A stretch of 64,000 bases of DNA. Origin: an uncultured Candidatus Actinomarina sp. (GTDB taxonomy: Bacteria; Actinomycetota; Acidimicrobiia; Actinomarinales; Actinomarinaceae). The stretch is from contig CACAQC010000003.1 of the NCBI GenBank assembly GCA_902534495.1, positions 6,952 to 70,951 on the forward strand. The letters run 5' to 3'. Below are positions 14,606 to 18,119 of the stretch, one piece after another; position 1 is the stretch's first letter, and the number at the start of each line of letters is the position of its first letter. A program made the position numbers and the translations under genes. Under the pieces are notes generated by a model. The model had not been told where the DNA came from. It made no database searches and saw only the letters and a program-made list of their open reading frames with translations.

Positions 14606-15721
14606 TTGGATATGAAAAACCGAAATCTATATTTAGGTATATTTTTAATCATTATTTCAGTTATTGGAATATTAATCTACAACTTAATACCTAATTTTGA
14701 AACCACTGAATTTGATCAAAACGCGATTATACAAATAAGTGAGGGCTCTACAACAACGTTACTTGAGGGTGATGCCACAACAACAACAATTGTTGAAGAA
14801 ATTAATGAGATTATTGATATTGAACAATCTGAAATTGATAAATTACTACAAAACAATAATACAACAAATATCTCTGAATATTTTGAAACTTACTTATTAA
14901 TAGGTTCGGATAGGAGGAGTGAAAATAGTTCAGCATCAAGAGGGTTTGTACAAGGACAAAGAGCCGACGTAATAATATTAGCCTTGATTAACAAAAGTAC
15001 TGAGAATATTGCCTTGGTTTCACTTCCAAGAGATTTATTAATTAAAAACCCCTGTACTCAAGAAGTACAAAGAATAAATTCAACATTTCAAAAAAATGAA
15101 TGCGGTAATTCTGCTGAAAACTTATCGGCTTCGATTTTAAATGTAACAGGATTATTAGTAGATCACTTTGCACTATTCACATTTGAAGGTTTTGAGAAGA
15201 TAATTGACTCACTTGATGGAGTAGAGATATGTTTAGAAAAGGCGCAAAGAGAAGGTTTTTCATTTGAATTGAGTGCAGGATGCCAAATAGTTAGTGGAGA
15301 AATAGCTCTTAATTGGGTTGTGTCAAGAAATACTGAAGTAATTGTTGGAGAAAAATTAATCGATGAAAACGGTAACGATGCATCAACTTGGATACCAATG
15401 CCAGGTGTCAGTGACTTATACAGAGTGAAAAAACAACAACAAATAGTGGTTTCTCTATTAAATAGACTTGATGAATTTAATTCTTACACAGATTTATATA
15501 ATCTTATTAAAGCCCTTGAGCTTACTTTCACGATAGATGAAACATTATCAATTCCAAATGCGACTCAGATACTGTGGGGATACAGAAATTTTGATTTTTC
15601 AAATATAAAGAAATTGACAGTACCTACTCAGCCTTATAGAACTGATAATGGACAAGAGGTTTTAATATTAAGTGATAATTTTTATAACTTTATTAATTCT
15701 CAAGATTTACTTGATCAGTAA
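14606..15721 (+). CDS. LytR-CpsA-Psr (LCP) family glycopolymer-peptidoglycan ligase
   Basis: N-terminal TM anchor, then LLIGSDRR...RADVIILALIN...ALVSLPRDL, the LCP core motif. The track start at 14606 is TTG; an ATG at 14612 is an alternative. Confidence 0.8.
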   Translation: MDMKNRNLYLGIFLIIISVIGILIYNLIPNFETTEFDQNAIIQISEGSTTTLLEGDATTTTIVEEINEIIDIEQSEIDKLLQNNNTTNISEYFETYLLIGSDRRSENSSASRGFVQGQRADVIILALINKSTENIALVSLPRDLLIKNPCTQEVQRINSTFQKNECGNSAENLSASILNVTGLLVDHFALFTFEGFEKIIDSLDGVEICLEKAQREGFSFELSAGCQIVSGEIALNWVVSRNTEVIVGEKLIDENGNDASTWIPMPGVSDLYRVKKQQQIVVSLLNRLDEFNSYTDLYNLIKALELTFTIDETLSIPNATQILWGYRNFDFSNIKKLTVPTQPYRTDNGQEVLILSDNFYNFINSQDLLDQ

Positions 15722-18119
15722 TTGATTCTTTAAATCCTAAAATAATCATAAAAAATATTATTGCATCTGGTGAATAAATTAAATCGTTTGTGATGTTGTG
15801 AATTAAAAAATATAAAAGTGAAAAAATTAAAATTAATTGATTATCGTTTATGATCTTCGATTTATTGAAAACTAAAAATATTAAAACAATAAAAAATATC
15901 AAACCTTGCAATAAACCATACTCAACAAAAAAAGTCAAATAACCATTATGTGCAGTTGTTAACTGACTCAGATATGAAGAGCTAGCAAGTGGGGGTTGTT
16001 CACTAGAAATTTTTCCATTCTTTTGAACTAAAACGCCAGACCTAAGACTTTTATCCCCAAGTTGATTGACATATTCTCCATCACTGTTAGTCCAACTAAA
16101 AAATAGTCTTCCATCATCGATATCCACTTTCCATGATTGTGTCTCGCCAGTAAATGCAGAGGTATTTGAAATCAAAGTTTGGGTCTCCCAAGGTATTTCG
16201 GGGATTGAAAGATGTATTATAATTTCAAAATCTTCATTGAAATCAAATTGATTTTCAATTGAAACCCAGTACTTATTTGGCCTAAACAATTTTAATCCTT
16301 GATCTTCAAATGTAATTTTTGAGTTGTAATTATTTAAAGAGTTAGGTTGATAAATAAAAAAGTTTTCATTTAAATTATCCTCTTCAAAAGTTACCTTCTT
16401 ACTGTCACTTTTAGAGAAAATTTCTATACTTTTAATGTTTGCATCTAAAAATGTATTACCAAAAGATTGACCATCTGCATGACCCCCAATTTCTATTAAT
16501 CCAGTATTAGTGGTAAAACTTATAACTTCACCTGTATAGTGTGGATATCCAACAATATCCCAATTTAGATTATCTTCAGATGTAAAAAATGATATTTTTG
16601 ATCTTGGTAAAAAATAATCATATTTATCGAACTTTATCTTGATATAGCCATCGATACTTCTAAATTCACACTCCGCGCAAAAATTTATAAGATTTTCTAT
16701 TGGTAATAAAGAATCTCTAATAAATAGGTTTTCTACAATTACGCTTAATTCACCAACTGCAATGGGCCTATCTTTACAAGAATAAAGTCCAGAGGCTTCA
16801 CATTCAATAAATATTGAGTTTGACTTTAAATAACTAAAATGTACATTTGCCTCACTATTATTTTCTAAATCATAAAACTCATAAAAATTTAAATTATTAC
16901 CAAGAACATTTAGTTCAAATGCTAAGCATGCAAATTCTCCACGTGTAATGAGTTTTTTTGAATTATCTACACAATTGTTTATTGCTTTTTGAACTAAATC
17001 TTGATTTGGCAATCTAAAAATATTTAAAAAATTAATTACTGTATTTTCATCAACTCTAAGATATTGACATGTGTTTCTGTCATCAGAACATTGACCAACT
17101 ATAAAATATTGCTGAAGAATTTCAAAGCCTCCGCCAGATGTACCAATAAAAAAATCAATATTAGTATCTCTATATTCTTCTGGTGTTATTCCTAACTCAA
17201 CTTTGTTAAGCGTTATTTTAAGATTCTCTTCAAGCAAATCTGGATTAACAGACAATAGGTAAGGTTCATAAATTTTTTCAACATATTGGCCTCCACCAAC
17301 GCCATTTACAAATTCAATATTTGATATTGCTATACTAGCTAGAAGAGACCTGTCATTTTCTTTCAAGATAACATCTGATGGGCCAAAGTATAATAAAGCT
17401 AATGAGCTTACAAATATTCCAGAAATGTAAATGATTTTAAATTTTCTACTTTTTATTTTTGAAAGTATATAAATTATAGAAACAATCAATAAAGCCAAAT
17501 AGCTACCCCTCGAATAAGTTATGAAAAATAAAAATAAATTAACAAAAATTAAAATTTGATAAAAATTTCTTCTGGTGTTTTTATAAAAATAGAAAGATAA
17601 TATAGATAACAAACCAAATATTGTGCCAGCTACATTAGGTCCTGAACCTTGAAATCCTGCTAACCTGCCAGAGAAAAAAATATTATTAGTATCTGAATAA
17701 TTAGTAATCCAACCAATTGAATTATTAAGATAAGACAGGTTAAACATAAATGACATAAGGCTTAATAAGGAAACTAAAATTAGCGGTAAGAAAAATAATT
17801 CAAGATCATTTATAATCAAATTCTTTGCAACCTTCTTAACTAACAGACCAATAAGGATATAAAAAATAAATCTCATAGAGGTTGGATTAAGCCAATCAAA
17901 AAATAAAAACAAAACGAATAACATCAGAAGACCAACCCATAAAAAGTCACTCTTGTCTAACTTAAACTTTTTTAAATTTAAAAATAAAAGAATTAAGAAT
18001 AAAAAAATAGTTGGAATATCTGAATATTCAAGCATAAATAATTTACCAATATTAGGTGGAATTATAAGGGATAGAGCAAAAAGTACTCCTGAAAATAGTA
18101 ACGTAATTTTCTTCACCAA
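15693..18119 (-). CDS. O-antigen-ligase-like membrane protein with a large Cys-rich/LamG-like extracytoplasmic insertion
   Basis: Colinear with 2285-3451 over about 280 aa: GRLAGFQGSGPN at ~151-162, YSRGS at 202-206, VNGVGGGQY at 271-279. The AHNGYLTFFVEYG motif only appears at 723-735. The ~440 aa in between contain 10 Cys and a jelly-roll-like segment (WKVDIDDGRLFFSWTNSDGEYV). The start is TTG at 18119 or GTG at 18116, 1-4 nt after tRNA-Met. Confidence 0.7.
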   Translation of the reverse strand: MVKKITLLFSGVLFALSLIIPPNIGKLFMLEYSDIPTIFLFLILLFLNLKKFKLDKSDFLWVGLLMLFVLFLFFDWLNPTSMRFIFYILIGLLVKKVAKNLIINDLELFFLPLILVSLLSLMSFMFNLSYLNNSIGWITNYSDTNNIFFSGRLAGFQGSGPNVAGTIFGLLSILSFYFYKNTRRNFYQILIFVNLFLFFITYSRGSYLALLIVSIIYILSKIKSRKFKIIYISGIFVSSLALLYFGPSDVILKENDRSLLASIAISNIEFVNGVGGGQYVEKIYEPYLLSVNPDLLEENLKITLNKVELGITPEEYRDTNIDFFIGTSGGGFEILQQYFIVGQCSDDRNTCQYLRVDENTVINFLNIFRLPNQDLVQKAINNCVDNSKKLITRGEFACLAFELNVLGNNLNFYEFYDLENNSEANVHFSYLKSNSIFIECEASGLYSCKDRPIAVGELSVIVENLFIRDSLLPIENLINFCAECEFRSIDGYIKIKFDKYDYFLPRSKISFFTSEDNLNWDIVGYPHYTGEVISFTTNTGLIEIGGHADGQSFGNTFLDANIKSIEIFSKSDSKKVTFEEDNLNENFFIYQPNSLNNYNSKITFEDQGLKLFRPNKYWVSIENQFDFNEDFEIIIHLSIPEIPWETQTLISNTSAFTGETQSWKVDIDDGRLFFSWTNSDGEYVNQLGDKSLRSGVLVQKNGKISSEQPPLASSSYLSQLTTAHNGYLTFFVEYGLLQGLIFFIVLIFLVFNKSKIINDNQLILIFSLLYFLIHNITNDLIYSPDAIIFFMIILGFKESITDQVNLEN

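Follow-up and report, generated by a model that had tools for sequence, protein, structure and literature searches.

We analyzed a 64-kb stretch of DNA (hereafter the window; G+C content 29.9%) whose host is Candidatus Actinomarina (OCS155), and focused on an open reading frame (ORF) on its reverse strand at 15693..18119. Depending on whether translation begins at a TTG codon or at the adjacent GTG, the ORF encodes a membrane protein of 808 or 807 amino acids, which we refer to as LONG. Based on the ORF, its homologs and its synteny, LONG is described here as a Wzy_C-superfamily protein with a nested, extracytoplasmic insert. A shorter Wzy_C protein of 388 aa, encoded on the same strand at 2285..3451 in the variable part of a genomic island, has no insert and is colinear with LONG once the insert of the latter is spliced out.

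In the AlphaFold2 (AF2) model of full-length LONG (predicted local distance difference test score, pLDDT, 74; predicted template modeling score, pTM, 0.62), nine helices precede residue 245 and three follow residue 729, and a 483-aa loop (aa 246–728) lies between helices 9 and 10. The first part of the protein (aa 1–245; 17385..18119, reverse strand, as for all features of LONG below) holds transmembrane helices 1–9, the outer-loop motif GRLAGFQGSGPN (aa 151–162) and YSRGS (aa 202–206, including R204), as judged from the AF2 helices, BLASTP, hhalign and the K/R-rich inner loops. The big outer loop starts with a juxtamembrane segment (aa 246–304; 17208..17384; LKENDRSLL...GVGGGxYVEKIY, with GVGGG at aa 273–277), which was delimited by conservation and is shared with two relatives that carry a shorter insert (P0128 and P0131). 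It continues through a Cys-rich helical module (aa 305–486; 16662..17207) and a beta module (aa 487–712; 15984..16661). The remainder (aa 713–808; 15696..15983) comprises AHNGYL (AHNGY at aa 723–727, with H724) and helices 10–12, and is supported by BLASTP and by the AF2 helices. Relative to the 388-aa paralog, about 430 extra residues separate the GxGGG and AHNGY motifs. The motif positions in the two proteins are those given in an earlier reading of this DNA made from the sequence alone (the sequence-only reading).

With the N-terminus inside, nine lysines or arginines fall within the 36 residues of the short inner loops and two within the 60 residues of the short outer loops. By the positive-inside rule the loop 246–728 is thus predicted to be extracytoplasmic, in agreement with the location that had been proposed for the insert, and a cytoplasmic insert is not indicated. 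Mean pairwise identity is 42–49% in the membrane parts of LONG and 60% in aa 263–304, one of the best-conserved stretches among those compared.

Against the Pfam Wzy_C family (PF04932; gathering cut-off 31.7 bits) the score of the short paralog is 47.8 bits. BLASTP aligns LONG with this paralog in two stretches in colinear order, aa 19–237 with 18–239 (E = 5e-8) and aa 719–787 with 306–376 (E = 0.021). Comparison of a profile of 23 LONG-family members with the paralog using hhalign gives a probability of 97.6% (E = 3e-12). When aa 283–712 were removed from LONG in silico, the resulting 378-aa protein aligned over its full length with the 388-aa paralog (25–27% identity) and matched Wzy_C model positions 2–148/149 in one stretch, at 19.5 bits and thus under the cut-off. 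The relative P0107, spliced likewise, matches the same model positions in one stretch at 34.9 bits, and the relative P0128 reaches 34.2 bits, both over the threshold; five clusters of the LONG family carry a precomputed PF04932 assignment. Through its homology to the threshold-passing short paralog, LONG is assigned to the Wzy_C superfamily. The colinearity noted in the sequence-only reading is therefore borne out from end to end, and the membrane parts are related to Wzy_C both directly, through the spliced alignment and the orthologs over threshold, and by way of the paralog. No match was found among PDB chain sequences using the full family profile, the short paralog or an insert-free profile, and no separate copy of the short paralog was found in the 8-kb flanks of related loci.

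In O-antigen ligases the undecaprenyl carrier is held at its diphosphate by two arginines, and a histidine activates the acceptor (R191, R265 and H313 in the structure 7TPG); in related inverting polymerase families an Asp or Glu occupies the position of the ligase His (PMC10920833). The candidate counterparts in LONG are R204 (codon 17508..17510), R257 in the KENDRS motif (codon 17349..17351) and H724 (codon 15948..15950), which would be equivalent to WaaL R191, R265 and H313 and would act as the two diphosphate-binding arginines and the acceptor-activating histidine. All three are invariant in 30 of 30 LONG-family members; R204 is also found in the short paralog, where H724 corresponds to H311. 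They occur in the order and places expected for the ligase Arg/Arg/His, although no alignment to 7TPG was obtained. More broadly, R152, R204, R257, H724, N725, E733 and D779 are invariant or nearly so (H724, N725, E733 and D779 strictly) and all lie on the outer face, as do the motifs GRLxGxQGxGPN, SRGS, DR, HNGY and NDxxYSxD, which show the same degree of conservation. Assigned by motif, the position of the ligase His is occupied in LONG by the invariant His of AHNGY and not by Asp or Glu. On the published criterion LONG, like the short paralog, looks like a ligase for this reason (PMC10920833), and its Arg/Arg/His pattern looks like that of O-antigen ligases more than that of polymerases.

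The Cys-rich module was delimited using conservation and the AF2 model, in which it consists of six main helices (pLDDT 50–78). LONG contains eight cysteines, at 344, 351, 383, 398, 440, 448, 481 and 484. The sequence-only reading had described ten in pairs; the pairing holds (344/351, 383/398, 440/448 and 481/484) and the number does not. All eight are invariant in 28 of 28 full-length relatives, even where the module is only 24–33% identical, and R393 and R451 are also invariant. The invariant cysteines fit an oxidizing compartment outside the cytoplasm, where they would form disulfides. Loci L015 (3–320, 371–1972) and L011 carry the relatives P0128 (533 aa) and P0131 (662 aa), which are missing exactly this module and keep the rest, including the juxtamembrane segment; the module is on this account a separable unit. 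P0128 is apparently split at its N-terminus from an upstream ORF of 105 aa, and a frameshift or an assembly error in that contig is therefore suspected.

The Cys-rich module has no Pfam match and no PDB match, and among 1.84e9 representative sequences it matches only LONG-family members and fragments. On sequence grounds it is lineage-specific. Its six main helices are arranged in three pairs and its ITRGEF motif recalls surface-layer homology (SLH) domains. An internal repeat was not significant (E = 0.34). Compared using hhalign with five SLH units (Sap and SbsB sequences verified in the PDB), the module gave E = 0.006 with a probability of only 6%, and compared with the Sap SLH triplet E = 0.21; Pfam SLH does not match the insert. 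The SLH likeness is thus short of significance and is kept only as a lead.

AF2 places strands over aa 489–707 of the beta module with pLDDT of about 75–93, and the module is the most conserved region of LONG (56–62% mean pairwise identity). The beta part thus folds confidently in the model, and the insert is not predicted to be a disordered stretch without a fold. In Foldseek searches the best credible matches of both the full-length and the insert-only models were concanavalin A and its Diocleinae relatives (probability 0.95–0.99, E 4e-3 to 3e-2). The insert-only model was poor (pLDDT 54) and was used only as a second independent look, in which concanavalin A came first again. PDB sequences gave no match to the beta module or to the insert, and a Foldseek search of viral predicted structures returned nothing useful.

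The only sequence relatives of the beta module outside the LONG family are six proteins (P0176, P0180, P0184, P0185, P0186 and P0196) built from tandem units of about 178 aa. These are large proteins with two to six tandem laminin G (LamG)-like units each and an Asp-box-like motif, FYTSxDGxxW, in every unit; Pfam at E ≤ 0.01 recognizes almost nothing in them. The units match Laminin_G_3 weakly (E = 0.009) over nearly their whole length. In LONG, aa 489–564 (16428..16655; FYTSxDGxxW...IEIGGHxDGQSFGNT) resemble the C-terminal half of a unit by hhalign (probability 96.8–97.5%, E 7e-12 to 2e-10) and hmmsearch, and aa 618–687 (16059..16268; DFEIIxxLSxPEIPW...SWKxDIDDGRLFFxW) resemble the N-terminal half by hhalign (probability 22–43%, E 2.5e-4 to 1e-3). 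When two units in tandem serve as the template, the beta module aligns in one piece across the junction between units. It is therefore likely, but not proven, that the beta module is a circularly permuted LamG-type jelly roll, the reservation being due to the weak match of the second half. Relative to other legume lectins, concanavalin A is circularly permuted. If the beta module is permuted too, this would explain why concanavalin A, and not ordinary LamG domains or legume lectins, tops an order-dependent Foldseek search. The tandem-unit proteins are a possible source from which the beta module was captured in permuted form.

LONG was searched against 5.8 billion proteins, which gave 289 matches. 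Among the 120 matches listed, almost all are 799–822 aa in length and 47–100% identical, and they derive from ENA, JGI, NCBI, Tara and Logan. LONG is present in ten species-representative genomes, each of them labeled as OCS155 cluster, as Candidatus Actinomarina or as an Acidimicrobiaceae single-cell genome. Many projects have yielded the frame of about 800 aa, in single-cell and metagenome-assembled genomes as well as in metagenomes, and it is kept down to about 30% identity. A profile of the insert alone, compared with 1.84 billion cluster representatives, matched only 77 proteins: six full-length clusters (800–830 aa), many metagenomic fragments of the LONG family, the relatives P0128 and P0131, and a small number of remote tandem-repeat proteins. 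No homologous insert was found in any other protein family among these representatives.

The sequence-only reading had left room for two genes joined by a sequencing or assembly error. We consider such a fusion, or a chance hydrophobic similarity, to be next to impossible. The same uninterrupted frame recurs in more than 280 clusters and in the ten species-representative genomes, with conserved synteny in 14 genomic or metagenomic loci, and the N- and C-terminal parts each match the paralog in order; the sub-threshold Pfam score is the only hint in favor of an artefact.

The gene order around LONG is conserved. On its left lie genes for PhoH, 7TM-HD, YbeY, UppS, an aminoacyl-tRNA synthetase, DnaG, tRNA-Asn, SCP2 and tRNA-Met, in every locus that extends far enough. 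After LONG follow a convergent LCP gene, an NTP transferase, a WecA-type transferase, a GT4 glycosyltransferase, a UDP-sugar dehydrogenase, an epimerase and two further GT4 genes. The same core surrounds relatives at about 30% identity (L012, L013, L014 and L015). The LCP (LytR-CpsA-Psr) gene, encoding a predicted glycopolymer-to-peptidoglycan ligase (14606..15721, forward strand; Pfam 82.3 bits), is the convergent neighbor of LONG in every locus extending far enough. The WecA/MraY-type initiating polyprenyl-phosphate sugar-phosphate transferase (12836..13870, forward strand; Pfam Glycos_transf_4, 120.7 bits) is conserved beside LCP and the NTP transferase. The 3′ ends of LONG and LCP overlap by 29 nt in the window (15693–15721) and by 4–40 nt in L012–L015, and nearly abut in the other loci, which leaves a terminator no room between the two genes.

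At its other end LONG abuts tRNA-Met(CAT) (18120..18194, reverse strand), which ends 0 nt before the TTG start and 3 nt before the GTG. The same abutment (0–9 nt) is seen in nine other loci (L001, L003, L004, L006, L007, L009, L010, L012 and L014). As this leaves no room for a promoter or a Shine-Dalgarno sequence, the LONG mRNA is probably co-transcribed with the tRNA and made leaderless by tRNA 3′ processing. The left flank is 89–100% identical in L003, L006, L009 and L010, whereas from LONG onward identity is 45–54%. In these four loci, as against L004, L005 and L007, identity drops sharply and exactly at the tRNA-Met (~18120), from 94–96% for SCP2 (59% in L009) and 89–93% for DnaG to 45–47% for LONG. 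In Candidatus Actinomarinales, tRNAs reportedly serve the glycotype island fGI1 as hot spots of insertion (PMC7771536), and based on the drop in identity we place the border of this flexible island at the tRNA-Met, with LONG as the first gene of this known cell-envelope island. Between L007 and L010, LONG is 91% identical and DnaG 66%, and the tree of the gene disagrees with that of the genomes; this discordance indicates exchange of island alleles between genera.

Two further genes may bear on lipid carriers. A 100-aa SCP2 (sterol/lipid-carrier) protein encoded between tRNA-Asn and tRNA-Met (18202–18504, reverse strand) is conserved in every locus examined, and it might conceivably act as a lipid carrier for undecaprenyl-linked synthesis. 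Next to the short paralog, a GT2 protein of 237 aa (3448–4161, reverse strand) belongs to the polyprenyl-phosphate sugar synthase type, a hint that extracytoplasmic decoration directed by the variable part of the island draws on a lipid-monophosphate sugar as well.

From the observed architecture, topology, conservation and context we infer a donor, an acceptor, a preference for ligase over polymerase, and sugar binding. The reading that we favor, although tentatively, is that LONG transfers a glycan from undecaprenyl diphosphate by chemistry of the ligase type and uses its expanded loop to bind the acceptor glycan. LONG would then be a 12-helix glycosyltransferase C (GT-C) enzyme of the O-antigen-ligase (Wzy_C) superfamily. 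Its donor would be an undecaprenyl-diphosphate glycan made by the adjacent conserved module of WecA-type initiator, GT4 transferases and sugar-nucleotide enzymes, and LONG would move this glycan from undecaprenyl diphosphate onto an acceptor, with R204 and R257 holding the diphosphate and H724 activating the acceptor. The outer loop, with R257 at its start and H724 at its end, is expanded by about 430 residues, which would form two extracellular modules, a disulfide-stapled helical module and a circularly permuted concanavalin/LamG-like beta sandwich. Positioned over the active site, these modules may recognize the acceptor, which is most probably a glycan attached to the wall or to a lipid, or hold the transferred chain, so that one polypeptide would perform both recognition and transfer. 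LONG would act beside the convergent LCP protein, predicted to attach undecaprenyl-diphosphate-linked polymers to peptidoglycan. Given that LONG is fixed next to the LCP gene, an arrangement with two outlets, like that of TacL and LCP enzymes, fits.

Several results weigh against this proposal. Intact LONG reaches only 20.4 bits against Pfam Wzy_C, under the 31.7-bit cut-off, in a match split into two stretches. The PDB search gave no sequence match of LONG to WaaL or to any solved structure, and WaaL, RodA and other GT-C structures are not in the top 50 Foldseek matches of the full LONG model, which is why the GT-C fold of the membrane part lacks structural confirmation. We also match R204, R257 and H724 to their WaaL counterparts by inference, and the short paralog has the same Arg/His pattern, such that the His does not separate the roles of the two paralogs. 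The likeness of the beta module to concanavalin A is weak in absolute terms (TM-score 0.32–0.35, root-mean-square deviation 6–7 Å), and Pfam searches at E ≤ 10 with the insert of ten members returned noise and neither Laminin_G_3 nor any other family. The concanavalin/LamG-like segment announced by the sequence-only reading therefore stands as to its beta-rich end, is weaker as to its fold than was suggested, and involves a permutation that had not been anticipated. No flippase or separate polymerase was seen in the 64-kb window, and a Wzy_C protein fixed within a WecA and LCP core could equally be the polymerase of that pathway.

The last point leads to the main rival of the ligase reading, which we regard as less probable yet substantial: LONG may be a Wzy-type repeat-unit polymerase of a conserved Actinomarina wall glycopolymer, with the lectin-like module holding the chain as a processivity or chain-length device and LCP attaching the polymer. 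LONG is the only Wzy_C-type gene inside the universally conserved WecA–GT4–LCP core, and in Gram-positive clusters homologs of Wzy_C, among them TuaE and SscD, are mostly interpreted as polymerases (PMC11841062). The divergence of LONG is also as rapid as that of the module's glycosyltransferases (45% vs 40–61%), as expected for an enzyme specific for its donor and its acceptor. A match to TIGR04370 ("oligosaccharide repeat unit polymerase"; E = 1.2e-4) points in the same direction, but at 21 bits it is far under the cut-off of 40. The polymerase reading further has to accommodate an invariant His where related polymerase families have Asp or Glu (PMC10920833), and a window in which no Wzx flippase was found next to LONG.

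Other explanations are considerably less probable. The large, extracellular and highly conserved insert could instead dock a protein, and LONG could then be an O-oligosaccharyltransferase of the PglL, PilO or WsaB type acting on Ser, Thr or Tyr of surface proteins; such enzymes are also Wzy_C members with a conserved His. This is improbable given that no acceptor candidate (an S-layer or pilin gene) was seen next to LONG, that glycans are likelier ligands of a ConA/LamG-like fold than peptides are, and that the fixed pairing is with LCP, a peptidoglycan ligase. We give still less credence to a membrane part devoid of catalysis that serves mainly as a surface anchor displaying a lectin-like domain, for example in wall organization, or as a phage receptor or decoy. 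LONG does lie in an island for which phage pressure is the presumed driver of diversification (PMC7771536), and its alleles move between genera, as seen in L007 and L010. However, all candidate catalytic residues and outer-face motifs are invariant or nearly so, and the exposed beta module is the most conserved region rather than the most variable. A more elaborate version of the glycan-binding idea, which we offer as speculation that is unlikely to hold in full, would make the insert a wall-glycan reader within a GT-C enzyme. The disulfide-stapled, SLH-like module would dock on a secondary wall polymer, and choice of the acceptor glycan would fall to the permuted LamG domain, possibly captured out of the interior of a phage-type protein with tandem LamG repeats; an exchangeable lectin cassette, moving between Actinomarina genera with the glycotype island, would thus encode acceptor specificity and help to determine phage susceptibility.

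The superfamily of the membrane core, the island and the role of the island in envelope diversity have been published. The nested two-module insert in the catalytic loop of an O-antigen-ligase-type enzyme appears undescribed, and a literature search for Wzy_C combined with Laminin_G_3, or for a lectin-bearing O-antigen ligase, found no description. To our knowledge, how O-antigen ligases, TacL-type ligases and Wzy polymerases choose their acceptors is largely unknown, and there is only one ligase structure. If the favored reading is true, a folded lectin-like domain in the catalytic loop would be a tractable handle on acceptor recognition, as a domain that can be expressed, swapped or deleted, and LONG would clearly exemplify how a domain can be inserted, with circular permutation, into a membrane enzyme of the GT-C type. 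The Candidatus Actinomarinales are abundant, uncultured, ultra-small marine actinobacteria with unknown wall chemistry (PMC7771536). LONG is universal in the order, opens its single glycotype island and is exchanged between genera, and for these reasons is likely central to the envelope and to phage–host dynamics.

Among known systems, the proposed enzyme would be closest in plan to WaaL (CAZy GT121; 7TPG), which also has 12 transmembrane helices, a long outer loop near the C-terminus, two Arg and a His on the outer face, and a donor on undecaprenyl diphosphate, as proposed here for LONG (PMC10920833). The long loop of LONG (246–728) is placed as is the long periplasmic loop of WaaL (PMC10920833), and the Pfam Wzy_C region spans the same elements in both. 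The two differ in that WaaL has about 400 aa and a short helical periplasmic loop, whereas the 483-aa loop of LONG contains two extra folded modules; moreover, the host of LONG is a monoderm actinobacterium that, unlike WaaL hosts, has no lipid A-core, and neither sequence nor Foldseek searches matched LONG to 7TPG. The 388-aa paralog has the same motifs at the same positions as LONG once the insert is removed, but it is without the ~430-aa insert and belongs to the variable portion of the island instead of the conserved core.

In Streptococcus pneumoniae the Wzy_C protein TacL (RafX), a lipoteichoic-acid ligase, puts teichoic-acid chains carried on undecaprenyl diphosphate on a glycolipid, and LCP enzymes put the same chains on peptidoglycan (PMC5727136). 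TacL is thus a Gram-positive Wzy_C ligase that works beside LCP enzymes, much as LONG is fixed next to an LCP gene, although TacL has 397 aa and no inserted domain and its homology to LONG is seen at the superfamily level. An extra functional module that cooperates with ligation is known from the O-antigen ligase WadA of Brucella and Mesorhizobium (GT121 + GT25; PMC10920833); there it is a glycosyltransferase appended terminally, whereas in LONG it is a lectin-like, non-catalytic module nested in the catalytic outer loop. Finally, the beta module resembles concanavalin A and Laminin_G_3 lectins in being all-beta and about 220 aa long, and differs in that its strand order appears permuted relative to Laminin_G_3, with the C-terminal half first, and in that it is nested in a membrane enzyme.

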